Shown piece after piece: positions 7,486 through 40,054 of a DNA stretch of 41,462 nt. The DNA comes from Candidatus Thorarchaeota archaeon SMTZ1-45 (lineage in GTDB: Archaea > Asgardarchaeota > Thorarchaeia > Thorarchaeales > Thorarchaeaceae). The notes below the pieces were generated by a model. The model ran no database searches, was not told where the DNA came from, and saw only the letters and a program-made list of their open reading frames with translations. A program made the position numbers and the translations under genes. The stretch is from assembly GCA_001563335.1 (NCBI GenBank), contig LRSL01000077.1, positions 1-41,462 on the forward strand. Direction: 5' to 3'. How positions within the stretch are numbered: the first letter of the stretch is position 1; each line of letters begins with the position of its first letter.

Positions 7486-8280
7486 TTAGAGTGCCCCCTT
7501 CTTTGCCAAGAACTCAACGAGCTCTTTCGCCGCTGCTTTCGGGTCTTCAGCCTCTATCTTGATTCCACCTTTCTTCTTTTCAGGTGGGAACACCTTTCTC
7601 ACCTGAGTAGGCGATCCCTTCAGACCAAGCTTGTCAACATCATACCCCAGTGTTTCAGCATTGACTTCCTCAAAGGGTTTCTTCTTTGCCTGCATGATGC
7701 CCATGATATTGGGAAGACGTGGTTCGTTCAGCCCTTTGGTGGCTGTGAGAAGTACTGGCATCTTTGCTCGTACTATGTCATATCCCTCATCTGTTTCTCT
7801 ATGGGCGATGACGAATTTTCCATCCTCACTCAGCTCAAGATGACGAACATAGCATATCTGGGGCACACCCAACAACTCAGCGATCTCAGGACCTACCTGA
7901 GCTGTATCGCCATCAATTGCCTGCTTTCCACAGATGACAAGATCAAACTCCATCTTTTTAATCTGCTCTGCAAGAGTGAGTGCTGTGACCCATGTATCAG
8001 CACCTGCAAAAGCACGATCTGTCATATGGATAGCCTTGTCACCCCCCATGGCAAGGGCCTTGAGTAGTGCTTCTTTTGCTTGTGGTGGGCCCATTGTGAT
8101 TATGGTCACCTCACCGCCATACTTCTCACGTAGTTTTATTGCCTCTTCAACTGCATATTCATCGAACGGATTCAGAATACTTGGTACTCCTTCTCTAATG
8201 AGCGTACCAGTTTCCTCATTTACCTTAACGTCAGCAATCTCGGGTACTTGCTTTACAGGAACGACTATCTTCAAAGCCAG
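7486..8280 (-). CDS. etfB: Electron transfer flavoprotein beta subunit
   Basis: VKQVP, NPFDEYAVEEA, GADTWVTA, GKQAIDGDTAQVGP, NEPRLP. Start uncertain: CTG 8280 (5 nt after GGAAGTGA), TTG 8274 or TTG 8295. Confidence 0.95.
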   Translation of the reverse strand: MALKIVVPVKQVPEIADVKVNEETGTLIREGVPSILNPFDEYAVEEAIKLREKYGGEVTIITMGPPQAKEALLKALAMGGDKAIHMTDRAFAGADTWVTALTLAEQIKKMEFDLVICGKQAIDGDTAQVGPEIAELLGVPQICYVRHLELSEDGKFVIAHRETDEGYDIVRAKMPVLLTATKGLNEPRLPNIMGIMQAKKKPFEEVNAETLGYDVDKLGLKGSPTQVRKVFPPEKKKGGIKIEAEDPKAAAKELVEFLAKKGAL

Positions 8281-8486
8281 TATTTTCACTTCCAATGGTC
8301 TTTTGTGGGTCAGTTTCGAGGAGGTCCCCGATATAAGGAATACGCACTGGATATAGAATAGTGAAGAGTGTCCTCATTGATTCTTGGTGCTCTCACAACT
8401 CATAAGGACAGGAATATTCAAATGAAAGCACCTTCACTATCATGAATTCGAATTGAAAGCAACACTAGAATAGGAGTTGGTAGGAG

Positions 8487-11400
8487 ATGGCTCTTTGTTC
8501 ACTCTCATATTCTAAAGGGGTAATTATAGTAATTCTGATAGTTCTACTAGTTGGTTCTAGCAGAGATGATCAGCATTTTCAGCTCAACACGCCATCAATC
8601 GCTAAGCACTATTCCATAAGTGACTATGCAACAAGAAGCCCTATCAATGTCACAGGGGATGCGGCTTTGGATTCACTTGGTTTGCCAGGTAGTGGTAATC
8701 AGAGTCAACCATACTTGATTCAAGGTTTTAACTTCACTGACTATCCTGAGGATTCTGCTATTGCTCTGTATGACACGACACGATATGTGACCATAAGGGA
8801 CTGCCACTTTGGAGGATCATTTAAAGTATCTATTACACTCTCAGCGGCTCATAATGTGCTCGTCTTCAATAATTCATTTCAAGCACATTGGCGATCCATT
8901 TATTCTGTGGGTTGCTCAAATCTAGGAGTGATCAACAATACGTTTTCCTATCCTGTCGCTTTGTACTCGAGTCCTGGTTGCCTTTTCACTAACAACATTC
9001 TCAATCCTGTAAGAGTGTATGAAGGCCATTATATCAAAGATGCAACAAACTCTATCATTGTCAACAATACCTGTGTATCAGGTGGTATATATGTTGAAAC
9101 CGGCACAAATGTAACATTCTCTAACAATACTGTTGGAGGGAAACCAATAGGCCATTTTGAGGGGCTTCAGGACAATATAATCAACGGAGCAGATTATGGA
9201 CAAATTGGAATTAATCAGTGTAGAAATGTGACAGTTAAAGGTGGGACCTTCAACAATAATGACGTAGCTATCTGGGTTGTTGATAGTACAAACTGTACAG
9301 TCCAGGATGTTAATACCTATAACTGCTGGAGTTCTGTAGGATTCAGTCGATGCAACCAGTCATTTGTATTCAATGCGACAGGTGGTTTTCTGTCATCGAT
9401 TTATGGAGTTTCGATTTCCGACTCCCAAAATATCATTGCAAGGGATTGTGAATTCACAGCATGTGGTTACTATGGAGTATCAACATGGAATTCAGAAAGA
9501 GTGACAATTATTGATAATATGTTACAGAATGGAGGATGGGGCATTTATGTGTATGAGTCATCTCAATTAGAGGTGGCCAACAACCAAATAATTTCAAACA
9601 ATATGGGACTTGAGGTGTCTATAAGTCAAGACATTCAAGTGATTGGAAATGCTATTCTTGATTCTCAAGAGTATGGGATCTTACTAAATCAAATCACAAC
9701 CGACTCAGTTCGTCTGTCTAACAATAATGTGACTGGAGGAACAATTGGAATCGAGGTCGAGAACTCAAGTGATGGCCCACTCATTGAGAACAACACAATC
9801 AACAGTGGACAAAATTATGGTATCAATCTCGAGCTGTCAACCAACGTCACAGTTCGGTTAAATAATTTTTCAAATTGTGGACTTGGCATAAATGGCTTGA
9901 TGTATACATCCCAGTTTGTTCACGGCGATATTCAACTATGGAAACATCAGATTAATGGAAACACCGTGAACACCCACCCACTTGTTTATCTGAGGGAGGC
10001 TAGTGATCAAGCAGTGGACCCATCTGCTGGACAAGTCTGGCTCATAGACTGCGACACAATAAGTGTTCTTAGTCTGAACGTTTCGAATTCAGGAGTCGGT
10101 TGTGGAATAGCACACAGCAGTAATATCCATGTGTCTGGACTCATATCCGACTTCAACATATGGGGTATATTTCTTACCTCTACTTATTCCTGCACTGTAG
10201 AGTTCAGTAGATGTAGCTTCAATGTAGAAGGCATCTATGGGCAGGTTTCAACAAATCTTCGTATTCATAATAATACATGCAAGTACAATGATGAGAATAT
10301 GGTCGTCTTGGGGGGTCCTGGGCTCACTGTGACATCGAATGAATGTGGTCACAACACGGGTGTGGGAGTTCTAGGGAGTTACGGATCCATTGGAATACAG
10401 GGTTGCAGCCACGCAGATATTTCTAACAACACATGTTATGATGCTTGGAGTGGGATATATGTTTCAGGGTTTAATCAGGAAAATGTGAGTATTTCTGGAA
10501 ATAACTGCTATCAGACAGGTGCAGGCATATGGACATCCTCACTATCAAACAGCTCTGTTGTGGATAACTTCTGTCATGATAGTGGGGAGGGTGTTGGCGT
10601 TTGGCTCTGTTACAACATCACACTTCTATCAAATGTCTTCTCGGAAATAGTTGACACAAATGTCCATGTGTATCATGGATCAGACAATACACTTGACAGT
10701 AACCACTTTGGAGGATGTACTTATGCTACAGTATTCTTTGAAGCTTCACCTGATGGTGCTATAAGAAACAATAACCTTACTGGTGATGCGCCAATCGGTA
10801 TCCAACTCAAGGACTCTCCACGCGCTTCAATCTACAACAACACCGTGGACATTGTAGGGTCTTTAGGGTCAGTAAGTGTCCTTCTTAATGACTCATCAGA
10901 TTGTATTTTACAAGAGAATTTGATATCAGGTGCAATTAATTTCGGGATTCATTCTTTCAACTCAACTAATACAATATGCAGAAACAACACGATAATGAAC
11001 TGTGCGAATGATGGAATTTGGTTCGACTCCTCAGTGGATGGTCAGGCAGACTCTAACTGGATAAGTGATTGCCTTGTTGGGATTCACGATTCATTCTGCA
11101 ATACCTCTATTCATATTACAAACCAGATTAACAATTGCTCTAAGGGTATCTTTCTCCAAGAGTCGCGACAATCACACACAGAGTATAATATCCTGTTTGA
11201 CAACATTGTTGGCATCGAGATCGAATATTCCTACAACATTATCTTGTCCCACAACAATATCAGTTATTCCCAGTCCAATGGCTTTACTCTCAATAATGTG
11301 GATACATGTGCTATGACTGATAATCTCATTCACAACAGTATAGATACTGGCCTTGCTATTTACCAGTCTCAATATGTTACCGTTACAAACGGTACATTCT

Positions 11401-12476
11401 ACTCTAACGGACAGTCAGCATGTGTGTTGATTGAGTTTTCAAACAATTGTGTTCTATCTGACTGTGAAGTAAGGGACAACTCTTACGGTGGTGTGTATCT
11501 GGAGTCATCCACGGACTGCCTCATCATCAACAACGTGATTATGAACAATCTACTCGATGGAATACGGATCATGGGATCTAGCAACCAGAACACGGTTTAT
11601 GGCAACACACTGGCACTCAACATTGGTGGAAATGGAAAGGACTACGGGATAAATAATGCATGGGATGATGGTATGGGAATAGGTAATATTTGGGATGACT
11701 ATTCGGGTACAGGAGTGTACCAAATTCCTGGTTCTGCTGGAAGCATTGACCACTACCCACTCCTCTACGATATCAACAGACCAAGTATTGATAGCCCGGC
11801 CGACATATACTATGATTATGGAGCAACTAACCAAATCATCACATGGTCGTGCAGTGATGACAATCCATCCTTATTCTATGTATTTGTTAATGGCACTCAG
11901 ATTAATCAAGGTGTTTGGGATGGTAGTAACATCTTCTTCAATGTTACAGGACTTACACCAGGTGTATACGACTATACCTTGCTTATCTATGACTTGGGAG
12001 GAAATTATGCATCCGATTCAGTTCTTGTTATTGTAACTGGTCCAGCACTCCCAAGTATAATAGGAGCTCCCATAGAATCGACAACGATTGAAGTCGGAAG
12101 CTCTGAGAGTGTACTTACCTGGAACGTGGTCACTCCGTTCCCGAACAACTATCAGATTCTTGTCAATGGAACTGTTGTGCAGGAAGGAGATTGGGATGGG
12201 TCTGCGATTACGTTTGGATTGGGTCAACTGAGTGTGGGGTTGTATAACATTACATTAGTGGCATATGATGAACTCGGAAACTTCGCAAGTGATTCAGTAT
12301 GGGTACAGGTGAATCCTTCTTCTTTGGATTTGACGCAAATACCAATATCACAGATTGTTGCTATAGCAGCACTTTGTATACTTGGATACTTTGGCTACAG
12401 GATTCTTGCTCATAGCAAGAAACAGAAGTCAGAATCAGATTGGAGAGAGATGTTAGACGACTTCGGACGTTACTAG
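8487..12476 (+). CDS. Large membrane-anchored right-handed parallel beta-helix (NosD/CASH-like) surface protein with two C-terminal Ig-like repeats
   Basis: N-terminal hydrophobic signal, many N-x-I-x-N-N/GI-x-L beta-helix turns, GNIWDDYSG cap motif, two Ig-like repeats (IITWSCSD...WDGS..., VLTWNVV...WDGS...), C-terminal TM helix and short charged tail. Confidence 0.9.
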   Translation: MALCSLSYSKGVIIVILIVLLVGSSRDDQHFQLNTPSIAKHYSISDYATRSPINVTGDAALDSLGLPGSGNQSQPYLIQGFNFTDYPEDSAIALYDTTRYVTIRDCHFGGSFKVSITLSAAHNVLVFNNSFQAHWRSIYSVGCSNLGVINNTFSYPVALYSSPGCLFTNNILNPVRVYEGHYIKDATNSIIVNNTCVSGGIYVETGTNVTFSNNTVGGKPIGHFEGLQDNIINGADYGQIGINQCRNVTVKGGTFNNNDVAIWVVDSTNCTVQDVNTYNCWSSVGFSRCNQSFVFNATGGFLSSIYGVSISDSQNIIARDCEFTACGYYGVSTWNSERVTIIDNMLQNGGWGIYVYESSQLEVANNQIISNNMGLEVSISQDIQVIGNAILDSQEYGILLNQITTDSVRLSNNNVTGGTIGIEVENSSDGPLIENNTINSGQNYGINLELSTNVTVRLNNFSNCGLGINGLMYTSQFVHGDIQLWKHQINGNTVNTHPLVYLREASDQAVDPSAGQVWLIDCDTISVLSLNVSNSGVGCGIAHSSNIHVSGLISDFNIWGIFLTSTYSCTVEFSRCSFNVEGIYGQVSTNLRIHNNTCKYNDENMVVLGGPGLTVTSNECGHNTGVGVLGSYGSIGIQGCSHADISNNTCYDAWSGIYVSGFNQENVSISGNNCYQTGAGIWTSSLSNSSVVDNFCHDSGEGVGVWLCYNITLLSNVFSEIVDTNVHVYHGSDNTLDSNHFGGCTYATVFFEASPDGAIRNNNLTGDAPIGIQLKDSPRASIYNNTVDIVGSLGSVSVLLNDSSDCILQENLISGAINFGIHSFNSTNTICRNNTIMNCANDGIWFDSSVDGQADSNWISDCLVGIHDSFCNTSIHITNQINNCSKGIFLQESRQSHTEYNILFDNIVGIEIEYSYNIILSHNNISYSQSNGFTLNNVDTCAMTDNLIHNSIDTGLAIYQSQYVTVTNGTFYSNGQSACVLIEFSNNCVLSDCEVRDNSYGGVYLESSTDCLIINNVIMNNLLDGIRIMGSSNQNTVYGNTLALNIGGNGKDYGINNAWDDGMGIGNIWDDYSGTGVYQIPGSAGSIDHYPLLYDINRPSIDSPADIYYDYGATNQIITWSCSDDNPSLFYVFVNGTQINQGVWDGSNIFFNVTGLTPGVYDYTLLIYDLGGNYASDSVLVIVTGPALPSIIGAPIESTTIEVGSSESVLTWNVVTPFPNNYQILVNGTVVQEGDWDGSAITFGLGQLSVGLYNITLVAYDELGNFASDSVWVQVNPSSLDLTQIPISQIVAIAALCILGYFGYRILAHSKKQKSESDWREMLDDFGRY

Positions 12477-12570
12477 AGTGTGGTTTTATCATAGTAGGAA
12501 GTAGTTTAATCCACATAGCGGGAGTGAAGTGATTTCACCTTAAGCAGTGATTGAAACTTACATGAGCTGT

Positions 12571-13440
12571 TTATTTGTGTACTAAATGTTGTAGGATAGG
12601 TATTGCAGAAACCCTGTTCATCTCAAGCCCCACCTCACTCTCATCAAGACCCATTGCAAGGCCGAGTATCTGCGGATAGAGAAGGACTGGGAGGTTATAC
12701 TCCTCACCATAAGACTCCTTCAGACCCAGCTGTTGCAGGTCAAGTTGATTGCAACAAGCAGGACAAACGACAGTAATAAAAACCGCTCCTGCTTCCTTCA
12801 TTGATTTGAGCTTGTCCCGAGCGAGTCTTATGGCTAGATCCTCATCTACAGGGAGCACAGTGGCACCACAACACTGTTTCCACAAGGGATACTCGATGAC
12901 CTGCGCGCCAGTGACTCTCATAAGTTCATCCAGAATAATTGGAGTGATTTCAGTAACATCTGTAGGTCGAAGAACATGACATCCATAGTGAATCGCTATA
13001 CCAACACCATCAAGGGGTCTTGTAATCTTCTTTCTTATGGAGTCAATACCAACATCTGCATGGAGGACCTCTATGAAATGACGTGGTCTGCTTATGCCCT
13101 TAAACTCAAAACCCTCTTGTTTCAATTCATCGTTGACCTTTTCTCTGGTTTTTGTATCATGCCTTAGAAGATGATATACATCTTTTAGACTACCAAAGCA
13201 ACCATTACAAGGAGTGACGACATCGTGTCCAATTCTGTCAGCTATCGCAAGGGTACGAGCGTTCACTTTCAACCAACCTAAATAGTCCATTGCTCTCAGA
13301 TTTGGACTGCCACAACATGCCACATCTTCTAAGTATTCTAGTTCCAGTTCCAAGATTTCTGCGACACGACACATGGACGCTTCATAGTTGGGATAGTTCG
13401 CAGGCACGCTGCAACCCATATAGAGGCTATATTTGGGCAT
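12571..13440 (-). CDS. hdrB: Heterodisulfide reductase subunit B (copy 2)
   Basis: Two CCG domains: YMGC...CCG...PCNGC and HYGCH...CCGA...CPAC. Start set to ATG 13440 directly after the hdrC stop. Confidence 0.93.
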   Translation of the reverse strand: MPKYSLYMGCSVPANYPNYEASMCRVAEILELELEYLEDVACCGSPNLRAMDYLGWLKVNARTLAIADRIGHDVVTPCNGCFGSLKDVYHLLRHDTKTREKVNDELKQEGFEFKGISRPRHFIEVLHADVGIDSIRKKITRPLDGVGIAIHYGCHVLRPTDVTEITPIILDELMRVTGAQVIEYPLWKQCCGATVLPVDEDLAIRLARDKLKSMKEAGAVFITVVCPACCNQLDLQQLGLKESYGEEYNLPVLLYPQILGLAMGLDESEVGLEMNRVSAIPILQHLVHK

Positions 13441-13441
13441 G

Positions 13442-13984
13442 TCACTTCCCCTCCTTGACAAGTCGACCAGTGCGAGTTTCACTTAGGATTTTTTTCACAG
13501 GATCCGTTGAGAGACCTGGCACCTCCGGTTCGAGATCCAAGTCTTCCCGCTCCCAATCAGCAGTGACTGTATATAGCTGACCCTTCTCAATGAGCTCCTT
13601 TCCAAGTGCGATGATACTACTTGGAACACTTCCCTCTTCAGCTGCAAGGTTCTTGCAGTCAAAGAAGATGTCTGTAACGCGTACAAGTTGAGGACATCGT
13701 TCCTGACACTCAAAGCATGTCAAACAGAGCCAGATTTCCTTCGAGGAGAGCACCTTTTCCCTCATCCCAAGGAGAATCATCCGAATCAACTGATGCGGTT
13801 TGATGTCCCAGACATTTGCAATTGGACATGCAGCTGTACAGGTTGAGCAAGCAAAACATGCAGATAGATCTTCGGCATTTGGCATGCTTTGTATCTCTCT
13901 TCTAAAACCTAGGTCAAGCTGTGACATGTCAATTGGGTCAATAAGAACTTCTGGAGGGGTTATCTTGTTTCGAGTTTCAGTCAG
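13442..13984 (-). CDS. hdrC: Heterodisulfide reductase subunit C (copy 2)
   Basis: CFACSTCTAACP and WLCLTCFECQERCPQ. The track starts at ATG 13927, but the frame is open back to CTG 13984, which overlaps the hdrA stop (CTGA) and lies 7 nt after GGAGGTG. Confidence 0.93.
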   Translation of the reverse strand: MTETRNKITPPEVLIDPIDMSQLDLGFRREIQSMPNAEDLSACFACSTCTAACPIANVWDIKPHQLIRMILLGMREKVLSSKEIWLCLTCFECQERCPQLVRVTDIFFDCKNLAAEEGSVPSSIIALGKELIEKGQLYTVTADWEREDLDLEPEVPGLSTDPVKKILSETRTGRLVKEGK

Positions 13985-16014
13985 GTTGATGCACCTCCAG
14001 ATGTCTTTTCTGCCTGCTCACGTTTTTTGTGAGCTGAAATGAGACCGAGAATCTCAGCCTCTATCTGTTCGGTCGTGAAATGCCTTCGCGAGATGGCTCC
14101 CGTGGGACACACAACCTGACACTTTCCACAGCCTGTACAGAGGATTGAACTGATTTCTGCCAGTTCTTTTTCGTCATCTGTGACAGTCATAGATATTGCA
14201 GTGAATGGACAGACCTTCTCGCAGAGACCGCACCCTATGCAGAGGGCATCATCAACAACCGCCTTGTCCATCTGCACTCGGACCCTGCCCTTGAGCACAT
14301 GTGACGCGGCTGCACTTGCTGCAGCTTTTCCGTCAGCGACGCTAGCAGGGATATCCTTAGGGCTCTGACAGGCTCCAGCGATGAACACACCTCTTGATTT
14401 TGTGTTCACCGGTTCGAGTTTTGGATGGAGCTCCTTCATGAAGCCCCCTTCACTTCGATCCACACCAATCATATGTGCAAGATGAGCTGCTCCCGGCGAT
14501 GGGTCTATAGCCATGGTCAGGACTACCATGTCAAAGTTGAGACGTAGTAGACTACCTGTCCCTTGATCGAAGACGGTGAAAGAGATACTTCCATCCTTTT
14601 CTTCAGTCATGTCACTCGGGAACCCTCGCACGAATCGTACTCCACTCTCACGCACTCGTCTGTAGAACTGTTCATACTCTTTACCTCCAGCCCTGAGCTC
14701 ATGATAGATAATCCATTGTTCAATGTCATCAGGATACAATCTTTGAGTCATCTCTGCATGTCTGAGTGTGTACATGCATCCAAAGTTGCAACACCAGGGG
14801 CGACGATTCTCATCTCTTGAACCTGCACAGTTGATATACGCTATGCGTTTGGGAGGCTGCTCAAACTTCGGTGGGATGAGTATCTTACCCTCAGTTGGTC
14901 CCACCAGACTTAGTAAGCGACCATACTGACCTGCGGTTACCACACGGTCAAATTTGCCTCCCCCATATTCAGGCAGTTCCTTGATGTCCATCTCTATGAA
15001 TCCTGTTGCAGCAACGATTGCACCAACAGTGATCTCAATCTCTTCCTCTTCAACATCATATGAGATGGCATCACTGGGACACTTCTCGGAACAGATAGTG
15101 CAACCATCGGTCCAGTGAGTGCATGATTCCCTGTCAAGGAAGAACACTCCTGGAACCGCTTGTGGAAAGGGTTTGTAAATCGCCTTTCTCTCCTCAAGTC
15201 CGAGATTCCACTCATCAGGGCCTTTTGCAGGACAGTTTCGTTCACAAGCTCCACAGTTGATACATTTCTCTATGTCAACATATCGAGGGTATTTCTTCAC
15301 GCGTACCCTGAAGTTACCATAGTCCCGTTCAACCTCAATGACCTCTGAATAGCTGAGAAGCTCAATATTCTTGTGACGTTCAACTGCAGATAGTTTGGGA
15401 GAGAGAATACACATCGAGCAGTCAAGTGTAGGGAAGGTCTTTTCCAGACGGGCCATATAACCTCCGATTGACGTGTACTTCTCTACGAGGTATACCTTGA
15501 TGTCCTTGTCAGCAAGGTCAAGCGCAGATTGTATTCCGGCTATGCCAGCACCTATCACGAGAACACTCTTTTCCACCGGATATTCCTCAAATCCAATGTC
15601 TTCCAGCTTCTTTGCCCGTTCAATCGCAGCCACGACAAGGTCGTAGGCAACTTTGTATGCCTCTTCTGGGTTGTCGTCATGGATCCACGTGTCATGTTCT
15701 CGAAGGTTTGCCTGAGCCAAACGGAAGGGATTGAGACCATTCTCTTCAAGAATCTCTCTGAATAACTGTTCATGGAGCTTTGGCGTGCAAGCGCCAATAA
15801 CAACACCGGTGAGATTGTGATCTTTGATCTGCTTGGCTATTGTGTCCTGTCCATCTTTTGAGCAGGTGAACATGTTGGATGTAGTGAACACAACACCTGG
15901 ATAGTCCTTAAACTCCCGGGCAAGCTTCCTGACATTGATTACACCACCAATGTTAGTCCCGCAGCTACAGATGAAGACTCCAATACGATCTTCCGTGTCC
16001 TTCTTTTTTGTCAA
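13981..16014 (-). CDS. hdrA: Heterodisulfide reductase subunit A, full length
   Basis: N-terminal CSCGTNI domain, GAGIAG FAD motif, KTFPTLDCSMC, inserted 2x[4Fe-4S] domain, CAGSRD...CCNFGC, C-terminal 2x[4Fe-4S] domain. TTG start 9 nt after GGAGGTG. Confidence 0.95.
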   Translation of the reverse strand: MTKKKDTEDRIGVFICSCGTNIGGVINVRKLAREFKDYPGVVFTTSNMFTCSKDGQDTIAKQIKDHNLTGVVIGACTPKLHEQLFREILEENGLNPFRLAQANLREHDTWIHDDNPEEAYKVAYDLVVAAIERAKKLEDIGFEEYPVEKSVLVIGAGIAGIQSALDLADKDIKVYLVEKYTSIGGYMARLEKTFPTLDCSMCILSPKLSAVERHKNIELLSYSEVIEVERDYGNFRVRVKKYPRYVDIEKCINCGACERNCPAKGPDEWNLGLEERKAIYKPFPQAVPGVFFLDRESCTHWTDGCTICSEKCPSDAISYDVEEEEIEITVGAIVAATGFIEMDIKELPEYGGGKFDRVVTAGQYGRLLSLVGPTEGKILIPPKFEQPPKRIAYINCAGSRDENRRPWCCNFGCMYTLRHAEMTQRLYPDDIEQWIIYHELRAGGKEYEQFYRRVRESGVRFVRGFPSDMTEEKDGSISFTVFDQGTGSLLRLNFDMVVLTMAIDPSPGAAHLAHMIGVDRSEGGFMKELHPKLEPVNTKSRGVFIAGACQSPKDIPASVADGKAAASAAASHVLKGRVRVQMDKAVVDDALCIGCGLCEKVCPFTAISMTVTDDEKELAEISSILCTGCGKCQVVCPTGAISRRHFTTEQIEAEILGLISAHKKREQAEKTSGGAST

Positions 16015-16929
16015 TTAGGATTGCACCTCCAGTTTCCCCCGCACAGGGCTGGGTCCCAGATTCTTGATTCTCTCAACAAACTCTGTCACTATTTCAGCGA
16101 ACCTAATACCCATGGCCGCTGAGGCGAAGTCAATGTACAGTCTGCCGCCCAGACCAATCTCCTCAAAAATACTCTGCCAGAATTTGACGAAGTCAGCCTG
16201 CATGAAGTTACCAGCCAATGGGTCATCACCACCATAGTGACATTCTGAGAGAAGGCATCCAGTCACTAGAACCCCGTCGACTCCGTTCTCCAATGCGGTC
16301 ATTATCTGAATGGGTTCCACCGCTCCACTACAAGGCACTCTTACTGTTCGAATATTTGTGGGATAGTGTAGATGCATCAGCCCTGCTAAGTCAGCTGCTG
16401 CATGAGAGCACTCCCAACACACAAAGCAGATTATGAATGGCTCCCAATCATGAATCTCTACGACTGGGGGTGGTTCTACTTCGCCAATGACGCTCACTAG
16501 ATCATATGTCTTCTCCAGTGAGAGACAGTCTTCTTTGCAGGCTTCAACGCACTTGTTACAGGCAATACACTTCTGAGCTGACCAAGAGATAGAACCATAA
16601 CCAGGAAGTCCTTCAGGAACAGAGATGGTCTGAACCTCGCCATTCTGTTTCAGTACTTGCAACAATGAAACCAATGACTCACGATTCTTTGACCTAAAGC
16701 CTTCTTCGGGTATCACTGCGTTAATATACTCTGGAAGTCTAAGTGAAGGTTCCAGCTCGAGAGCCTCAACTTCGCATGCCTCAATGCACTTCTTGCAAGC
16801 ACTACATGAGGGCGGTATATAGCTGATAGTGCCAAATCCCTCAACCTTTTCCGGGACTTCCAAGATTCGAGTGGGTGTCTTCACTGCAATGTTTCGTATC
16901 TTCTGAATGAGCCGTTCTCGCTTATCCAC
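16015..16929 (-). CDS. mvhD: Ferredoxin-MvhD fusion (two [4Fe-4S] motifs plus [2Fe-2S] MvhD/FlpD domain)
   Basis: CSACKKCIEAC and CIACNKCVEAC, then FVCWECSHAAADLAG, RVPCSG, GVLVTGC...CHY, LGPSP. Confidence 0.88.
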   Translation of the reverse strand: MDKRERLIQKIRNIAVKTPTRILEVPEKVEGFGTISYIPPSCSACKKCIEACEVEALELEPSLRLPEYINAVIPEEGFRSKNRESLVSLLQVLKQNGEVQTISVPEGLPGYGSISWSAQKCIACNKCVEACKEDCLSLEKTYDLVSVIGEVEPPPVVEIHDWEPFIICFVCWECSHAAADLAGLMHLHYPTNIRTVRVPCSGAVEPIQIMTALENGVDGVLVTGCLLSECHYGGDDPLAGNFMQADFVKFWQSIFEEIGLGGRLYIDFASAAMGIRFAEIVTEFVERIKNLGPSPVRGKLEVQS

Positions 16930-18886
16930 GCAGCTCCACCTCCTTCTGCATCTTCTCAGGCGTTGCTGCCATCATATACGTGGCTCTCACCCGATCTGGG
17001 TCTTGCCCAACCTCACGCAGCATCTCCCTGGTGAGTTGGACCACGAGTTCTGATAGATGATCACCAGTCTGGTGATGACACCCACCAGGTGGGCAATGTG
17101 CCACAATGACTCTTTCAGCCCCTACAACCAGACCTTTCAGAATCTCAATTGGAGAAACCATCCCAGCACAGGGAAATTGGATTACATATGTTCCTGAGGC
17201 ATAGCTCTTGCCAGTAAAACCAGCTTGGTCAATAGAGGCATTTGCACACTCACTGCAGGCATAAACAAGTGTGAATGGTTTATTCCTCTCAAGGTGACTG
17301 TGAGTTTTCGCTATTGTTTCGAGTCTAGTAAACCAGCTCTCCTTGCTGTGAGACTGAAACTCTATGGCTCGAGTTGGACAGGCGGACACGCAAATGCCAC
17401 AAAACTCACAATGGACTGGAATGTGTATTACTTTGTCCTCGAACAGTCGCAAGGCATCATTTGGACAAGCTGTTATACATGCCTTGCACACATCACAGCT
17501 CTCGTCATCAATGAGTGGTGTCCACCCGGAATGTTTCAAAGGCGACCTGACTACTTTGAAAGCCTCCAAGACTGCATTCTGAGCTGAAACCAGAGCGTGA
17601 GAGAGGTCCATTACTGTCTTTGCACCTCCAGCAATGAAGATACCTCTTCGAGAGGTCTGTACAGGTTTCATCTTACTGTATCTAGTCTTAATGAAGCCGT
17701 TATCATCACATTCTACACCCAAAGCTGCAGCGAGCCGAGTCGTGTCACTGATTGGACCGACAAGCTCATTGATTGCGAGTGTGTCTACTGTGACCTCTCT
17801 CACTATCGACTCAAGTCTGTTCTCAATTAGACAGGTCAATCCACCATCATGCTCTTTGACCTGTTTCACATTACCACGCAAAAAGATGACCCCTGAGTTA
17901 CGAGCTCTGCGATATAGGTTCTCATCATCTGTCTGGATGTCTGAGTGTGATACAAAGATGATATTGCCCTGGCTAGCAAGCTCTTCGGTCATTCTCAGGA
18001 GATGACTGCCCTCAGCTGAAGACATTTCGACATCAGGGTCAGTAACGACCAAGATGTTGGAGCCCTTCTTTGCGTTTTTCTTTCCTGATCTAGTGACCAA
18101 GCTCTGTAGAGTAAGGACCCTCTCGGATTTTCCATAACGACATTTCTTTGCTATGTTAGGAATGTATTGCTGAGTGCCTGTGGCGATTATGATAGCCCCG
18201 TAGTCTTGTGTGGTTAGGTTGTCCTCAGAGTCTTTCCACGTAATCTCATATGACCCCATTTGCCCCTCAATCTCTTGCACATACCCCTGAGCCCGCTCCA
18301 CACCAGATAGTGATTTGTGAAGCGTCTTGAGCATTTGGGCTAGTGTTTCTTTATCACTCATGAAGAAATGGTCTTCGTAGTACTTTTCATCATTCTGACC
18401 TGGAGGTTCCAGAAGGGTTACCCCAACTCTTAGCTTCTGGAGGTCGGATGCAGCTTTTAGCCCAGCAATTCCGCCACCAATAATGAGAACTCGTTCAATC
18501 ATGTTCTCATTGAACTCAATTGGAGGCTCCATATAGTCCAGCTGTAATGCGGCATCCGTTAACAGTACTATCGCTTTACTGGTTGCAGACTTGCTATCCT
18601 CAGAGTGCACCCAAACAACATGTTCTCTGAGAGGGACAAAGGAAATTAAATCGGTCTTAAGTTTCTCTTTCACTGGGATGCCAATGATTTGAGAGCTGCA
18701 CGCTCCAATTGCTACTTGATCACCATTTGAAACACTCTTCTTAATCTTGGTGAGCCCATCTTCCAGACATAAACTGTCTACGGTTTCAATCGTATCGAAT
18801 GCCTTGGCGACTTCCTTCTCGACCTTAGAAAAGTCTACGGTCTTGTTTAGTGTATTATTACAGGTACAGAGAAACAGCTTCTTCAT
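16922..18886 (-). CDS. Divergent HdrA-like flavoprotein fused to ferredoxin and MvhD (QmoB-like architecture)
   Basis: N-terminal CTCNNT...C...GACS...REHVVWVH domain, GGGIAG, GIFIAG, CDVCKACITACP / CEFCGICVSACP, MvhD-like ACSECA...PCAG...CPPGGCHH. The DCxxC motif, inserted ferredoxin and CxGSR cluster motif are absent. Confidence 0.88.
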   Translation of the reverse strand: MKKLFLCTCNNTLNKTVDFSKVEKEVAKAFDTIETVDSLCLEDGLTKIKKSVSNGDQVAIGACSSQIIGIPVKEKLKTDLISFVPLREHVVWVHSEDSKSATSKAIVLLTDAALQLDYMEPPIEFNENMIERVLIIGGGIAGLKAASDLQKLRVGVTLLEPPGQNDEKYYEDHFFMSDKETLAQMLKTLHKSLSGVERAQGYVQEIEGQMGSYEITWKDSEDNLTTQDYGAIIIATGTQQYIPNIAKKCRYGKSERVLTLQSLVTRSGKKNAKKGSNILVVTDPDVEMSSAEGSHLLRMTEELASQGNIIFVSHSDIQTDDENLYRRARNSGVIFLRGNVKQVKEHDGGLTCLIENRLESIVREVTVDTLAINELVGPISDTTRLAAALGVECDDNGFIKTRYSKMKPVQTSRRGIFIAGGAKTVMDLSHALVSAQNAVLEAFKVVRSPLKHSGWTPLIDDESCDVCKACITACPNDALRLFEDKVIHIPVHCEFCGICVSACPTRAIEFQSHSKESWFTRLETIAKTHSHLERNKPFTLVYACSECANASIDQAGFTGKSYASGTYVIQFPCAGMVSPIEILKGLVVGAERVIVAHCPPGGCHHQTGDHLSELVVQLTREMLREVGQDPDRVRATYMMAATPEKMQKEVELRG

Positions 18887-20155
18887 CTAAGCACCTCCCT
18901 CTAAGTCTAGGTATACCTGTAATGCCACAGAGTTTGCCTCAGCTACACTGGTAGGAATGTCAGTGGGTCCAGTGGATGTACCGCAGGCATAGATTCTTTC
19001 TCTAGGGTCTTGATGGGAAATGAATCCATGCTTATCGAGAATAGAGGTGAACTCTTCTCTTTCAGATGCAAGAGGTATAAGTGATGAGGCTAAAACAACA
19101 AGGTCAGACTCAATCTCTAATCGTTTCTTTGACTCTGTGTCCTCTACAATGGTTAGTAGTGAATCACCTCGAATTGTCACTTGGTCGGGCTTTCCGCGAA
19201 TAAACTTAACACCGAGCTCTCTCGCAAGAGTGAGATAGTGTTGACTGTGCAAAGGAACTCGCAGATCCATGTAACAAAGTGTAACGTTAACTCCAGAGTT
19301 TTTCAACATAACTGCATGTTTGAGGCTATATGTACAGCAGGCCTGGGAGCAGTATTCGGCAGCATTCAAATCCCTGCTCCCAGCACAGAGTATCATTGTA
19401 ACGGAGTTCACAGATTTCCCTGATGCTGTGAGAACTGCGCCATTGGTAGGACCGGTGGAGTCTAGAAGACGTGCAAGCTCCCGTTGAGTCAGCACATCTT
19501 GATACTCACCATACTCATACCCTGACAAATTACTTGGGTTTCGTTCTTCAACGCCAGTCGCAATAACTACAGCGTCAGCAGTTATAGAGCGGCTTGTTCG
19601 TTTCTGCTCGAGATTGATGGCGCCCACTCCACAGACATCTACGCATTTCCCGCATTTCGTACAAGACTCGATATCAATCACAGGAATGAGAGGAATAGCC
19701 TGTGGAACAGGTCTGTAGATTGCTTTCCGATTACGCCTTCCAAGATTCATCTCATCAAGGACTTCAACATCGCATACATTGATGCATTCTAGACACACAA
19801 CACAGCGGTCAGGTGAAACTAGTCTTGGTTGAGACCGCAACGACAGAGAGAACTTCTTTCCATTCTTCTTGATGGATTTTATATCTGTCAAAGTATGAAG
19901 GGTCAATCCCTTCTGTGTTCCGAGCAGCGTTCTATATTGGCAGCGGCGATGTTTGCCATCGTATAACTCCTCGCAGACATCAAGGCAGAGCGCGCAGTCA
20001 TCAGTAGGGAATACTTTACCAAGGTGAGCTGAAAGACCTCCAACGGTCGCTTCCTTTTCAACAAGATGTACTCTCATCCCAAGATCAGATAGCTGTTGAG
20101 CAACTTGAACACCAGCAATTCCAGCACCAACCACAACAACGGTCTTGACCATCAC
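18887..20155 (-). CDS. Truncated HdrA-like flavoprotein (QmoA-like length, retains inserted ferredoxin)
   Basis: Begins directly at VVVGAGIAG; KVFPTDDCALC, CVVCLECINVC, CTKCGKCVDVC, CAGSRD...CSQACC; lacks the N-terminal domain and C-terminal ferredoxin. Confidence 0.88.
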   Translation of the reverse strand: MMVKTVVVVGAGIAGVQVAQQLSDLGMRVHLVEKEATVGGLSAHLGKVFPTDDCALCLDVCEELYDGKHRRCQYRTLLGTQKGLTLHTLTDIKSIKKNGKKFSLSLRSQPRLVSPDRCVVCLECINVCDVEVLDEMNLGRRNRKAIYRPVPQAIPLIPVIDIESCTKCGKCVDVCGVGAINLEQKRTSRSITADAVVIATGVEERNPSNLSGYEYGEYQDVLTQRELARLLDSTGPTNGAVLTASGKSVNSVTMILCAGSRDLNAAEYCSQACCTYSLKHAVMLKNSGVNVTLCYMDLRVPLHSQHYLTLARELGVKFIRGKPDQVTIRGDSLLTIVEDTESKKRLEIESDLVVLASSLIPLASEREEFTSILDKHGFISHQDPRERIYACGTSTGPTDIPTSVAEANSVALQVYLDLEGGA

Positions 20156-21054
20156 TCACCAACTCCTATTTTTTCAAGTAAGGGTTCTATTTTCACTCGA
20201 TGATACCTTCTTGAATTGCTGACCACAAGGTCTGTCAGACCCATAGCAAGAGCTAACATCTCTCCCAAGTATAAGACGGGCATATTGAGTTCTGTATCTA
20301 GATACTCGATGGCTTTCCTCTGCTGCATCTCGAGTTGTGTGTAGCAAGTGGGACAGATTAGAACAATCGCATCTGCACCTGCATCACTTATTTTCTGAAG
20401 CTTCTGGGCAGTGAGCTTGAACGACTTTGACTCATCGGAAGGTCCTATAGGAGCACCACAACAAGCCATCTTATCCTTGTATTCCACTGGCTCTGCGCCA
20501 ACAACTCTGATTAAATCCTCCATCCATTGTGGATTCTCTGCATCATCCATGTATGTTGCTTCAATTGGTCTGACAAGGTGACACCCATAATGAGAGGCTA
20601 TGGAGAGACCCTTGAGAGGATGAGTTATTTTTTTCGCGATTTGATCCAAGCCAACATCCTCATGTAGTACATGAAGTATGTTCTTCACAGTGACTTCCCC
20701 AGTTGCCTGCATTCCAGCATTCTTCAGTCTCTTGTTGACCCTTTCTCGTATATCTGAATCTGTTTTGAGCGTGTGTTTCACAACAGACAATGTGTGAAAA
20801 CAACCACTACATAGAGCAACCGTGTCACGAGAACTTGCCTCGCTCACAGCAATATTTCTAGCGCCTATTGTGAACCAAGCTTCAATGTCCACACCAGGGA
20901 ATGTGGTTGGTTCAGGACAGCATGTGTGCCCCTCGTCTGTTACTAGCTCCACATTCAGACGGTTCAGAACCTCTCTCATCGTGAGTTCAAAGTGTGGAAG
21001 TCTGAAGGGGATAGTACAGCCAGGGAAATAGGTGTACTCAATTGACTTACTCAC
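20152..21054 (-). CDS. hdrB: Heterodisulfide reductase subunit B (copy 1)
   Basis: YFPGC...CCP...CSGC and HYGCH...CCGA...CPTC. Start set to GTG 21054, 6 nt after GGAGGTG. Confidence 0.93.
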   Translation of the reverse strand: MSKSIEYTYFPGCTIPFRLPHFELTMREVLNRLNVELVTDEGHTCCPEPTTFPGVDIEAWFTIGARNIAVSEASSRDTVALCSGCFHTLSVVKHTLKTDSDIRERVNKRLKNAGMQATGEVTVKNILHVLHEDVGLDQIAKKITHPLKGLSIASHYGCHLVRPIEATYMDDAENPQWMEDLIRVVGAEPVEYKDKMACCGAPIGPSDESKSFKLTAQKLQKISDAGADAIVLICPTCYTQLEMQQRKAIEYLDTELNMPVLYLGEMLALAMGLTDLVVSNSRRYHRVKIEPLLEKIGVGE

Positions 21055-21574
21055 CCTCAGCACCTCCATATCTAGATTCAACAGATTCAACCCGTTCAAC
21101 AGTGCCTAGTTCCTTGAGGATTTTACCAAGCTGTGCAACTGGAGGGGGTCCCAAACTCGGTAGCCCCATCTTTTCACGAGTCTTATGCATTGGTTCGCTA
21201 ACTAAGATTGTGCGTCCCTCTGACAGAATGGCTCGTGCTCTATCCAGAGCTGTCTGAGGTGTATTTCCAGAAAGAAGACCCCTTACTTTGGCGAGTACTA
21301 GGATCTCTGGTATCTTCACATGCTCAGGGCATCTGACTTCACACTGTTCACAGGTAAGGCAAGTCCAGATCAGCCGCTCCTGCGCTAACGATTCATCTGC
21401 TAGAATAAGCTTCTCTAGAAAGAGTCGAGGGTTGAAAGACTCATCTATCATTGCGATTGGACAGGCAGCAGTGCACCTTCCACATTGGTAGCATCTCAAT
21501 AGCGTCTTACCCTCTGGTTGCAGAAGAATCCACTTACGAAATTCAAGGTCAGAGGATATACCATGATCCGTCAT
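21047..21574 (-). CDS. hdrC: Heterodisulfide reductase subunit C (copy 1)
   Basis: CYQCGRCTAACP, FNPR, IWTCLTCEQCEVRCPE. Start set to ATG 21574 (track uses TTG 21625). Confidence 0.93.
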   Translation of the reverse strand: MTDHGISSDLEFRKWILLQPEGKTLLRCYQCGRCTAACPIAMIDESFNPRLFLEKLILADESLAQERLIWTCLTCEQCEVRCPEHVKIPEILVLAKVRGLLSGNTPQTALDRARAILSEGRTILVSEPMHKTREKMGLPSLGPPPVAQLGKILKELGTVERVESVESRYGGAEGE

Positions 21575-21824
21575 AATATTCAAACCTTGTAAACTGGATG
21601 TGAATTCTCGAGTTAAGCGTCCCAAAAAGAATGTCGATTTGTTTAGGGATTATGTAACAACTGAATTTGCGCTTCATAGGAAAGAGCATCATGGATAGTG
21701 TTTGTATTTGAGAAGACCCATTTCATCACTAGATGATGCAATATCTTTCCGTACATAATCCTTTTATTAGTGTACTAGCGCTAACCGAAATAGTTCCTTT
21801 AACAAATAGAGGAGAGTAATCACA

Positions 21825-22142
21825 ATCGGAAAAGAAAAGGCAATTGGTGCCCTTATCTTCATCTTCGCCCTGCTGGTGCTAATCTACTACACGTGGGGGC
21901 TAGTTATACTTCAGCTGGTTCCAGACCTATCAACCTGGGTTATAGATAACTTTGGTGCTTTTGCACCTCTATTCAATCCAAGTCCAGATTTCCTAGTTCA
22001 ACTACCGATATACCTGGGCGTGGTTCTGATTATGGTCATTGCTATGTGGATTGGTTGGACAATGCTAACCACTCCAGCTCCTGAGCCACTTGAGGACTTC
22101 GACTTCGATGAAGAAGAAGTTGCAGAGAAGGCTGAAGAGTAA
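21825..22142 (+). CDS. Small two-TM archaeal membrane protein with acidic tail
   Basis: WIGWTMLTTPAPEPLE resembles a family I recall from TACK/Asgard archaea. The frame extends upstream of track start 21876 as (ATC)GKEKAIGALIFIFALL, bounded by TAG 21807-21809; GAGGAG at 21809-21814. Confidence 0.8.
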   Translation: MGKEKAIGALIFIFALLVLIYYTWGLVILQLVPDLSTWVIDNFGAFAPLFNPSPDFLVQLPIYLGVVLIMVIAMWIGWTMLTTPAPEPLEDFDFDEEEVAEKAEE

Positions 22143-22166
22143 TCGTTTCGATAACAGCTAGTAGAC

Positions 22167-22182
22167 AGGGCCGAAAGGCCCT
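22167..22182 (+). terminator. GC-rich hairpin with GAAA tetraloop
   Basis: AGGGCC-GAAA-GGCCCT followed by TTCATTCCGTTTT, 24 nt after the stop at 22142. Confidence 0.65.
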
Positions 22183-22284
22183 TTCATTCCGTTTTCCCTA
22201 TAGTTGACATGCTACTCGTTTGTATAAGTGCAAGTAGGTCATGACTTAAGAAGCAATACCACATCTTCGATGTAGTGTTATTAG

Positions 22285-22824
22285 ATGCCTTTCTTTGGAC
22301 GTCCAAGAGACCCTGAATATAGAGAAGCTGCAAGATTGTTGAATGAGGGGAGAGCAGAAGAGGCTATCACAAAACTGAGATTGATTATTGAAAAGACACC
22401 TGAGCATATAAACGCCTACATAACACTAGCTGTTGCCCTCATGGAGGTTCAAGAAAAACCCATGAAGGATACTCCTCAGACAGTTGAGGCATTAGCGCTC
22501 CTTGACACTGCAGCAAACTTGGATCCAAAGAGTCCAATTCCATACTTCAACATGGGTGTAATGCTCAGGACCATTGGACTTCTTGAGGAGGCGCTAGTGA
22601 GCTTTGAGAAAGCCCTAGAGAGAGAGAAACGCCAACCACTTGCGATAGCCAATATGGCTGAAATCAACTATGAGTTAGAACGATGGGAGGAGGCAATTCG
22701 TCTTGCCAAACTTGCTCTGATAAGAGACCCTGGACTTGAGTCAGCGATGGGCTGGGTCAGGGTGGCCATGCGAAAAGCAGGCATGCTAGACCATGATGGT
22801 AATGTGATTGAACGACCCGATTGA
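22285..22824 (+). CDS. Tetratricopeptide repeat protein
   Basis: TPR-like helices: AYITLAVAL, PYFNMGVMLRTIGLLEEALVSFEKALE, AIANMAEINYELERWEEAI. Confidence 0.85.
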   Translation: MPFFGRPRDPEYREAARLLNEGRAEEAITKLRLIIEKTPEHINAYITLAVALMEVQEKPMKDTPQTVEALALLDTAANLDPKSPIPYFNMGVMLRTIGLLEEALVSFEKALEREKRQPLAIANMAEINYELERWEEAIRLAKLALIRDPGLESAMGWVRVAMRKAGMLDHDGNVIERPD

Positions 22825-22917
22825 TGGCCAGTACGCAATCCTTAAATTGACTCCCCTTGGCTTCTGCACAGCTGTGAGTTGTAACAATCGACTCCGAATA
22901 TCACAATGGGTGATAAC

Positions 22918-23328: not shown

Positions 23329-23471
23329 AATTCATTCTCTTATTCTTTTTTATGGAAAAAAGGGCTTTATGAGTCCTTTTTCGTACTATCAAGAAATCAA
23401 AGTGAGTTCTCAACCCCTATCAACAGGAAAACAAAAATTGATTAATTGGAGAGAAGACTTTCCATCCGTAG

Positions 23472-30571: not shown

Positions 30572-30788
30572 GATTTTTGCTCACCTCTTTTGTTTTCCAG
30601 TATGATTAGATTCCCAGGTGTTTCATCGGACAATAATGCGCTCCGGGACCTAATTGCAGACTTTCACAGTAGCCCCAGTCCCTATAATAGCAGTTTAGTT
30701 TCACGTAACATCTCGCGGTTTTATTCAATCACTCCAAAACAATGAACATAAGAGGAGGAGAACGAGATTGTTCAAGCGGCGGCAGTTC

Positions 30789-39046: not shown

Positions 39047-40009
39047 CTAATCCCTCAAAATTGAGCCAGTGATTGCTAGAAACACATCACCAAGAGATGG
39101 TTCTCTCATTGATGTTTGCTTCACGACTAGTCCACTTTCAGATAGTCGACTAATTACAAGAGGTAAGTCAGAGTGTCCTGCTTGACTTCGAATCCAGGCT
39201 GTGCGAGGTCCCCCATTCAATGGATCGGACACCTTCTCCACATCGAGCTTGACTTTTTCAGATAGCCATTCAGAGCCAAGTTTGGAGTCCATTCCCTCAA
39301 TCAAGACTTCAATTAGATAGTCCCCAACATGCTTACGCTTTAGTTCACTAGGAGTTCCAGTTGCAACAAGTCGCCCGTTATCAATCACAATCACGCGATC
39401 TGCTAATGCTTCAGCCTCATCCATATAGTTCGTACAGAAAAGAACAGTACGACCCTCATCCTTCATCTTGCGTACTTGATTCCAGATCAAATTTCTGCTT
39501 TGAACATCCACACCCAATGACATCTCATCCAGTATCAGAAGTTCTGAGTCATGAAGTATGGAACGAACAAGTGCCAGCCGCCGTTTCATTCCCCCGGAGT
39601 ATGTCTTCACAAGGTCATCCTTCCGATGTGTCAGCCCAGCAAGCTCAAGCATTCTAGTAATACGGTCATTCACCTCTTCCTTTGGGACTCCATATAGTTC
39701 TGCATGATACTCCAGCGATTCATACGCAGTCAGGTCTTGATAGAGAGCAGTTTCTTGTGGCATGAATCCAATGAGTTTGCGAATTATGTCAAGATTCTCT
39801 ACCACCTCGTGCCCAGAAACCTTCACACTGCCAGAGGTTGGTTTCAGTATTCCAGTGATCAGTTTGACAGTGGTCGATTTACCTGCCCCATTAGGACCTA
39901 GGAGGCCAATAATCTCTCCCTGTTCAACTGAGAAGGAGAGTTCCTCCAAGGCCCTGTGGCCGCCCTTGTAGATATGCGTTAGATTTGACACTTCAACTAT
40001 TGAGGCCAG
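39047..40009 (-). CDS. ABC-2 (DrrA-like) exporter ATP-binding protein
   Basis: GPNGAGKST, YSGGMKRRL, LILDE, TNYMDEAE, REPSLGDVFL. The track start GTG 40018 lies inside the AGGTGA SD; CTG 40009 is 5 nt downstream of it. Confidence 0.93.
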   Translation of the reverse strand: MASIVEVSNLTHIYKGGHRALEELSFSVEQGEIIGLLGPNGAGKSTTVKLITGILKPTSGSVKVSGHEVVENLDIIRKLIGFMPQETALYQDLTAYESLEYHAELYGVPKEEVNDRITRMLELAGLTHRKDDLVKTYSGGMKRRLALVRSILHDSELLILDEMSLGVDVQSRNLIWNQVRKMKDEGRTVLFCTNYMDEAEALADRVIVIDNGRLVATGTPSELKRKHVGDYLIEVLIEGMDSKLGSEWLSEKVKLDVEKVSDPLNGGPRTAWIRSQAGHSDLPLVISRLSESGLVVKQTSMREPSLGDVFLAITGSILRD

Positions 40010-40054
40010 TTGAATCACCTATGTAATAATACCAGACGTAGAACATAGGTTTGG

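Follow-up and report, generated by a model that had tools for sequence, protein, structure and literature searches.

The DNA considered here, termed the window, is the whole 41,462 nucleotides (nt) of contig LRSL01000077.1 from the bin of Candidatus Thorarchaeota archaeon SMTZ1-45 (assembly GCA_001563335.1). The host is an uncultured Thorarchaeote, an Asgard archaeon with relatives that go partly under Thorarchaeota and partly under Promethearchaeota, and its genome, G000, in which the window is contig C77, comprises 3.54 Mb on 119 contigs with 42% G+C (G001, G010 and the like denote related genomes). At the downstream end of an eight-gene operon on the minus strand, genes whose products resemble HdrA, HdrC and HdrB follow one another, and the subject of this account is where translation of the middle one begins. 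The start of hdrC is probably not its first canonical codon, ATG 13927, but a CUG that overlaps the hdrA stop codon and stands behind a perfect Shine-Dalgarno (SD) sequence, and on the comparisons below it would very likely be one instance of a general use of SD-led CUG and AUH starts (H for A, C or U) in this Thorarchaeote. Coordinates of all features are collected in Table 1.

Read on the minus strand the junction is ctGGAGGTGcatcaacCTGActgaa, with ACATCTGGAGGTGCATCAACCTGACTGAAACT as its wider context. The last two letters of the CTG open the hdrA TGA, so that CTGA (13984-13981) forms on one mRNA a start/stop overlap of the 4-nt NTGA kind associated with translational coupling. The seven nt that part it from GGAGGTG are the organism's normal distance: the SD signal of the genome is located at −14 to −8 from the start, and 148 of 195 SD-ATG pairs have an aligned spacing of 5–8 between the last base of ..GTG and the start. 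The CTG and 18 more codons run in frame to ATG 13927 (LTETRNKITPPEVLIDPIDM; the frame reads LTETRNKITPPEVLIDPID), and between the stop at 14020-14018 and that ATG the hdrC frame holds no ATG, GTG or TTG. No SD stands in register before ATG 13927 (a match being a 4-mer or longer of AGGAGGTGATC), and a start there would leave a 53-nt gap (13980-13928) behind hdrA, whereas at each of the seven remaining junctions of the operon, which runs from 21625 to 12571, the genes abut or overlap.

A homologue search of 41 related genomes gave 24 same-genus hdrC loci, and at the column of the CTG 22 of them have ATG, with CTG confined to G000 and G022; two further homologues, the hdrA-linked one in G016:C252 and a second G000 copy on C69, bring this to 24 ATG and two CTG in 26. 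Within the hdrA-linked clade the column is ATG four times and CTG twice, and the junction is ATGA in G010, G014, G016 and G018 where G000 has CTGA. Seven bases upstream of the column all 24 loci carry GGAGGTG, GGAGGTA or GTGGTG, the five closest orthologues (L001-L005), and G016 also, having GGAGGTG or GGAGGTA at the identical distance. The extension of 19 codons is open in every one of the 24 loci and follows the conserved pattern (M/L)[TA]E...PP..LIDPI[DE]M; within PPEVLIDPIDM five changes separate the two CTG-bearing genomes, G000 and G022, and all five are synonymous. The A-to-C change from ATG to CTG is silent in the last Thr codon of hdrA (ACA to ACC). In the hdrC tree G000 is grouped with the ATG-bearing G010, and since the support for this grouping is just 80/79, one origin of the CTG and two are both possible.

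Is the C real? Contigs of four public runs were aligned over 12000–31500, the comparison being with contigs only. Those of X2 and X3, which come from other studies, span 13982-13984 at a depth of 4–6 with no difference listed, and the likely source run, X1, has no variant there at depth 9. Taken together, the orthologue columns and the contigs of other studies argue that the base is real and that the extension was coding in the common ancestor. An earlier note, made from the letters of the window, had described a perfect SD 7 nt before a CTG overlapping the hdrA TGA, 19 open in-frame codons from there to ATG 13927, and an ATG that lacks an SD and would open the only gap of 53 nt in an otherwise abutting operon; all of this is borne out, with coordinates exact. 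It had also proposed that orthologues and reads be consulted: the aligned ATG/CTG column with its retained extension supports the CUG start, and the contigs of X1–X3 show no ATG at 13982-13984.

Elsewhere in the window four more genes come into question. The start column of a secreted M14 peptidase is ATC in 20 and ATT in five of 25 genus orthologues and ATG in none; the in-frame TGA of the SD stands two codons upstream of the ATC, ATA 30571 adjoins it, and a typical signal peptide follows, ending before the first GTG. In an ABC ATPase the CTG is present in 22 of 22 genus orthologues, behind GGTGAT, and the N-terminus from it would read (M)ASIVEVSNLTHIYK. An in-frame GTG inside the SD is excluded there because in two species (loci L097 and L100) a stop codon immediately precedes the CTG, and the ATG three codons downstream is found in only about half of the orthologues. 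Over 42 wider Thorarchaeote loci the same column is CTG 31 times, TTG eight times, GTG once and something else twice, a toggling that is the behaviour of a start codon and unlike that of a Leu codon. In hdrC, the peptidase, the ABC ATPase and the eS25-domain gene described below alike, no in-frame canonical codon can yield the conserved N-terminus.

For the third gene, encoding a small membrane protein, the peptide RRVITIGKEKAIGALIF is conserved with synonymous changes in 25 loci and GTG 21876 is not conserved. Across these loci column 21819 is ATC in 14, ATT in eight, ATG in two and CCG in one, while column 21825 is ATC in 19 and ATA in six; the two ATG species point to the former and the SD register (AGGAG at an aligned spacing of 7) to the latter, so that the start would be an AUH codon either way. 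The protein, of two helices, has a sub-threshold match (E = 3e-4, 21.4 bits against a cut-off of 27.3) to DPM2, the regulatory subunit of eukaryotic dolichol-phosphate-mannose synthase, and none in NCBIfam. At 21794-21854 the X1 contigs are split into pieces of 61, 43 and 48 nt, a pattern typical of a one-base variant bubble, here near 21824; such a variant would fall on the last letter of the ACA that separates the two ATCs, a codon that is ACG in relatives. In the fourth gene, for ETF-beta, all 14 loci of the G000 subclade share CTG 8280, and the column two codons on, that of TTG 8274, is TTG or CTG there, an alternation that makes it resemble a Leu codon; in two distant relatives this second column is aligned with ATG. 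Aligned spacing from GGAAGTGA is 6 to the CTG and 12 to the TTG, and a start at CTG 8280 is likely but unproven.

How general is this in the genome? Gene models (3153 genes) came from a simple codon-usage caller, and three tests were anchored on them. The first took codons that are in frame, lie no fewer than four codons ahead of the first canonical start and have an SD of 6 nt or more at a spacing of 5–9: CTG tops the 61 codons (7 of 197), and CTG with ATH accounts for 23 of 1373 against 66 of 12851 for the other codons (odds ratio 3.3, p = 8e-6). The second compared SD motifs of at least 6 nt at gene 5′ ends with SD-like motifs deep inside genes. Of 522 motifs, 366 have a canonical in-frame start in register, and among the register codons of the remainder CTG and ATH make up 38 of 185 against 488 of 5127 internally (p = 1e-5), an excess of some 20; with 7-mers the figures are 16 of 51 and 111 of 1187. 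The third set in-frame against out-of-frame codons behind 108 SD motifs of at least 6 nt at gene 5′ ends that lack an in-frame canonical start: CTG, ATA, ATC and ATT amount to 34 of 137 in-frame codons and 9 of 273 out-of-frame triplets (odds ratio 9.7, p = 1e-10), or 16 of 35 and 3 of 77 for 7-mers, and the second-position variants ACG, AAG and AGG are without enrichment.

Measured against out-of-frame triplets, CTG/AUH starts make up 3.1% behind 5-mers (a class that this control may overstate), 5.2% behind 6-mers, 9.5% behind 7-mers and 7.9% behind 8-mers or longer. There are 32 genes that carry an SD-led near-cognate codon, against 414 canonical SD-led motifs; starts behind an SD of at least 6 nt are ATG 245, TTG 106, GTG 71, CTG 11, ATT 8, ATA 8 and ATC 7. 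TTG is unusually frequent behind strong SDs, with 106 of 422 canonical starts, above the 71 of GTG. By estimate some 30–50 genes of G000 use a CUG or AUH start, that is 1–1.5% of its genes and 5–8% of those with a strong SD. A naive tally of triplets after every GGAGGTG-like motif on both strands, which gave a weak ATG peak and no visible CTG/AUH peak, was dropped in favour of the gene-anchored tests because internal motifs dilute the signal.

It was in a gene-anchored form, then, that the genome-wide tally proposed in the earlier note was run, and an in-frame near-cognate excess was found. That note had further supposed relaxed, SD-driven start selection in four to five of about 37 genes. The SD-driven part fits; the density belongs to the window, which has four to five sites in 34 called genes and three among its 12 starts with an SD of at least 6 nt, and is thereby denser than the genome at about 1–1.5% (P = 0.002 if the rate is taken as 1.5%; P = 0.04 when starts with a strong SD are considered). 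The sites it had listed besides hdrC (ATC 21825, ATC 30574 with ATA 30571, CTG 40009 and CTG 8280) lie behind SDs as described, three of them backed by orthologues and CTG 8280 only plausible, and for the small membrane protein the AUH start stands, with 21819 as much a candidate as 21825.

Protein domains speak to the same point. In five further G000 genes the Pfam profile begins upstream of the first canonical start, among them a flavoprotein of succinate-dehydrogenase type in which position 1 of FAD_binding_2 falls at residue 7 and the first canonical start at residue 39. Another of the five is a gene with an eS25 domain (L248): Ribosomal_S25 covers residues 5–84, the first canonical start lies 54 codons in, inside the domain, and the approximately 200 residues after the domain match nothing in Pfam. 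One of 30 loci was dropped from its alignment, having a stop upstream of the column, and in the 29 aligned loci, from 16 genera, the start column is ATT in 24, ATC in one and ATG in one, the other three having ATG or TTG two codons on.

Between G000 and G001, of the same genus, 676 orthologue pairs were compared (1.15 Mb of G001). Stop-to-stop extension lengths of G000 against G001 or G010 proved noisy, from shadow open reading frames (ORFs) on the opposite strand and from the 4–9 codons of translated SD and spacer, and the cases kept have either an aligned canonical-versus-near-cognate column or a long conserved extension. In clear switches G000 has CTG, ATA, CTG or ATC opposite ATG or GTG of G001; in others G001 has ATT or CTG opposite ATG of G000, one of these being a radical-SAM gene with its CxxxCxxC upstream of the first canonical start; and two additional starts are kept as ATT and ATC in both genomes. 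The frame test, repeated in G001 itself, gave 9 of 47 in frame against 4 of 97 out of frame (p = 0.01), and in 400 kb of G067, from another Thorarchaeote genus, 9 of 32 against 2 of 56 (p = 0.0015). A CTG start is also seen in two Thorarchaeote genera in an ArsR-like regulator (LSETL.I..D..ILR.GRALSSGTR), where the codon lies six bases after GAGGTG at G000:C69:+64905 and at +30954 of G067. A different kind of case is found in G000:C51 (ORF 11889-12666 of the reverse complement), where the gene opens as TGA ATT GGA GGA and that of G001 as ATG ATT GGA GGA; an extra A after the ATG takes the ATG out of frame, and either the gene starts at ATT or the assembly is wrong by one base.

Table 1. Features of the hdrA-hdrC junction and of other genes with a proposed near-cognate start (positions are those of the window unless a contig is named)
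Feature	Position	Strand	Remarks
hdrC Shine-Dalgarno GGAGGTG	13992..13998	-	Inside the last hdrA codons
CTG, proposed hdrC start	13982..13984	-	7 nt after GGAGGTG; CTGA overlap with hdrA stop
hdrA TGA stop	13981..13983	-	From the ORF read
HdrC N-terminal extension, 18 codons after CTG	13928..13981	-	TETRNKITPPEVLIDPID; conserved in orthologues
ATG 13927, first canonical codon, rival start	13925..13927	-	Internal Met in orthologues
hdrC-like gene	13442..13984	-	180 aa from CTG; Pfam Fer4_8 1e-11
hdrA-like gene	13981..16014	-	677 codons; TTG start behind GGAGGTG; NCBIfam HdrA2 723 bits, cut-off 1100
hdrB-like gene	12571..13440	-	ATG 13440 behind AGGAGG; CCG domains
Secreted M14 peptidase, proposed start	30572..30587	-	GAGGTGA (30587-30581), 6-nt spacer, ATC 30574-30572; gene to 28874; Pfam Peptidase_M14
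ABC ATPase, proposed start	40007..40020	-	AGGTGAT (40020-40014), CTG 40009-40007; gene to 39047
Small membrane protein, proposed start	21810..21827	+	AGGAG (21810-21814), ATC 21819, ATC 21825; gene to 22142
ETF-beta, start region	8278..8293	-	GGAAGTGA (8293-8286), CTG 8280-8278, TTG 8274-8272 two codons on; subclade alignment
eS25-domain gene, L248	G000:C118:10777-11628	-	ATT behind TAGGAGAGTA; 283 residues
Succinate-dehydrogenase-type flavoprotein	 	 	ATT start; FAD_binding_2 begins before first canonical start
Two ABC ATPases	 	 	ATC and ATA starts; ABC_tran begins before first canonical start
Nucleotidyltransferase	 	 	ATT start; NTP_transferase begins before first canonical start

The explanation we favour, with a probability of roughly 0.78, runs as follows. 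The strong SD, GGAGGUG, would pair with the 3′ end of 16S rRNA, which would bring the CUG, 7 nt farther on, into the P site, where the initiator Met-tRNA would read it with a first-base mismatch, so that Met would be the first residue. Ribosomes ending hdrA on the overlapping UGA would supply the subunits, that is, translation of the two genes would be coupled. The CUG would derive from an ancestral AUG through the change that is silent in hdrA. Near-cognate CUG, AUC, AUU or AUA codons at normal SD distance would likewise open three or more further genes in the window and some 30–50 in the genome, and in some of them the weak codon has been retained throughout a genus or a family, where it would probably hold translation at a fixed low level, the reduced yield relative to AUG being suggested by analogy with Escherichia coli and Staphylococcus aureus.

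Several observations weigh against this, and its rivals draw on some of them. The two background controls disagree, giving an excess of about 20 or about 30 genes at an SD of at least 6 nt; the gene caller is crude; and the contig depth, 4–9, is low. Among the listed runs holding the hdrA-hdrC stretch there is no RNA run, and the case is one of sequence comparison. The initiator tRNA was not called by ARAGORN with or without introns (26 and 31 tRNAs). On the minus strand of G000:C69, near 162332 of the reverse complement, there is an initiator-like CAU anticodon stem-loop with a T arm and a 3′ acceptor end, the 5′ half being non-contiguous; this tRNA gene may be intron-bearing or split. As for the factors, aIF2-gamma of G000 starts with GTG, and aIF1, in single copy, does so too.

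Of the alternatives, the one that survives best, though we regard it as unlikely, has both starts in use, ribosomes either re-starting at the CUG or sliding to AUG 13927, so that long and short HdrC are made. Termination-reinitiation coupling at overlapping gene pairs is established in archaea and bacteria; the CTGA overlap suits such a scheme, and the internal Met encoded by ATG 13927, kept in 25 of the 26 homologues, could act as a second start. However, nothing marks AUG 13927 as a start, and the internal Met needs no special explanation because the ATG-bearing orthologues share it.

Slightly less probable again is that hdrC now starts at ATG 13927 only, the old start being dead and the 19 upstream codons an undecayed relic. 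The rival ATG is the first canonical codon, and its conserved Met fits here as well. The extension is uninformative on the G000 branch, which has no change in it to reveal selection (the sole difference between G000 and G010 is a D-to-N in G010). The HdrC family profiles begin near residue 24–41, do not need the extension and, for that reason, cannot choose between the starts. Against a relic stand the missing SD and the solitary gap that ATG 13927 would entail, the retention before the CTG of both a perfect SD and its spacing, and the G022 gene, which has the same CTG and an intact extension with only synonymous differences in its conserved half; further, CTG is the conserved start of other genes in the genus and the most enriched codon behind orphan SDs. 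Translation of hdrC from CUG 13984 thus remains the preferred reading, and it is held to be likely, the general use of near-cognate starts very likely.

A different doubt concerns the generalization: that the genome-wide excess is an artefact of gene calls or composition and that the conserved cases are a few exceptions such as occur anywhere. Besides the crude caller, this could appeal to A-rich codons, of which AAA, for example, is 2.7-fold enriched at 5′ ends relative to the internal control, and to G036, from an unrelated Asgard family of the phylum, in 800 kb of which the in-frame surplus in the frame test fell short of significance (6 of 56 in frame, 5 of 117 out of frame, p = 0.18). Of two measures on which Thorarchaeote samples were compared with G036, one yields p = 0.03 and the other p = 0.55, and specificity to Thorarchaeia is not established. 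Yet the frame control shares positions and composition with what it controls, enrichment is confined to variants of AUG at its first or third position, the result is replicated in two more Thorarchaeote genomes, G001 and G067, and many of the listed genes lose the start of a Pfam domain or a signal peptide without the codon; an artefact is accordingly improbable, more so than either rival account of hdrC. G036 itself has plausible cases: on its contig C1, near 404903 (L327-L328), a gene for an aIF2-gamma-like GTPase (..NIGTCGHVDHGKT) apparently opens at an ATT 7 nt behind GAGGTGA and 16 codons ahead of its first canonical start, which recalls bacterial infC.

Weakest of all, and scarcely credible, is that wrong base calls or faulty assembly account for the CTG and its odd companions, or that these belong to a minority strain of the bin, for although the bin is 88% complete with 5.8% contamination and the likely source run reaches a depth of about 9, contigs of X2 and X3 are identical, G022 has the same CTG and the other sites are common to 22–25 species each.

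The name given to hdrC needs a word of caution. TIGR03290, an HdrC model, is its best NCBIfam match, yet the equivalog cut-offs are not reached (92 bits against 160 for TIGR03290, 48 against 350 for NF041779). The 4Fe-4S dicluster domain and an operon that has genes for an HdrA-like protein and an MvhD/FlpD-domain protein upstream and one for an HdrB-like protein with CCG domains downstream show the product to be HdrC-like, as in non-methanogens, and it is not assigned as the methanogen enzyme. At 14206-15198 all four runs have a contig that joins 14225 to 15176 and skips 950 bases of hdrA; it has just 20 matching letters on the shorter side, its loose ends differ from the window, and it is probably a related hdrA from another organism or a paralogue. 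On the plus strand between ETF-beta and hdrB an ORF of 1329 codons (8487-12476) seemingly has no counterpart in the otherwise syntenic G010:C86, where, from match coordinates, the genes flanking its site are about 5 kb closer. A scan of the window with Rfam gave zero matches.

How far might all this extend? One may entertain, doubtful as it is, the notion that in Thorarchaeaceae, and maybe in Asgard archaea as a whole, the choice of start codon follows a relaxed regime, with CUG or AUH starting one in 12–20 strongly SD-led genes, and, no less tentatively, that TTG as a quarter of canonical starts and weak codons fixed over genera or families, even in the eS25-domain gene, belong to the same regime. 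Weak codons maintained over 16 genera (the eS25-domain gene) or 25 species (the peptidase) look selected, which in turn suggests fixed low translation or factor-dependent control, and the conserved CUG and AUY starts are test cases for how much mismatch an SD-using archaeal ribosome tolerates. There is a practical side. Gene finders for metagenome bins commonly use ATG, GTG and TTG only, and such genes are therefore truncated in practice: the M14 peptidase loses its signal peptide, the flavoprotein its FAD-binding GxGxxG and the ABC ATPases their first strand. If Asgard archaea did follow the relaxed regime, at least one in a hundred of their published proteins would lack N-terminal residues, and systematic truncation of this sort matters because Asgard proteomes are heavily mined for eukaryote-like proteins.

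NCBI translation table 11 lists ATG, GTG, TTG, CTG, ATT, ATC and ATA as starts, and the four codons enriched here are exactly its rare ones, though the table merely permits them. In bacteria the fidelity of initiation is set by IF3; archaea lack IF3 and use aIF1, aIF1A and aIF2. In eukaryotic CUG initiation it is the initiator tRNA that reads the CUG, with the eIF1/aIF1 family setting fidelity, but eukaryotes find the codon by scanning and Kozak context, and here it would be found by the SD. In E. coli, according to Hecht et al. (bioRxiv 10.1101/063800), AUA, AUC, AUU and CUG initiate at 1–2% of AUG, infC and pcnB are the only confirmed natural cases named, and annotated starts in well-annotated bacterial genomes are ATG 81.8%, GTG 13.8% and TTG 4.35%. 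The AUU of infC and pcnB is, as proposed here, a near-cognate codon behind an SD and the sole start, and in those two genes it keeps expression low; but E. coli has two such genes and G000 some 30–50 by estimate, with CUG the most enriched. The word 'unusually' that the earlier note applied to this relaxation thus holds relative to published bacterial figures, the only ones with which it was compared. For S. aureus a ribosome-profiling study (PMC13009471) gives infC AUA, cvfC1 AUU, ccpN AUA and citZ AUA, conserved, with extended SDs, at about 10% of AUG. The extended SDs aid recognition of the weak codons there, and here too the share rises with SD length; the differences are that those are four sites in one bacterium, found by ribosome profiling, and these are in an archaeon, sequence-based, at about tenfold the density and with CUG included.

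Among archaea, about 30% of putative alternative initiation sites in Haloferax volcanii are near-cognate and were set aside (PMC7261190), and 5% of new small ORFs in Methanosarcina mazei start with CTG (PMC11456600). Those are alternative sites or small ORFs, while the candidates here would be the main conserved starts of ordinary enzymes. A 2020 review of archaeal initiation (PMC7531240) names, in its available sections, only AUG, GUG and UUG. In the literature on Asgard and Thorarchaeote start codons we found no paper on near-cognate starts, and supplementary start-codon tables may exist; a paper on a Heimdall profilin voices doubt over one predicted start only. The kind of initiation proposed is thus a known one, and what would be new is its setting: an archaeal host with aIF1 and aIF2, a density about tenfold that of the bacterial examples compared, CUG in the lead and conservation across genera.

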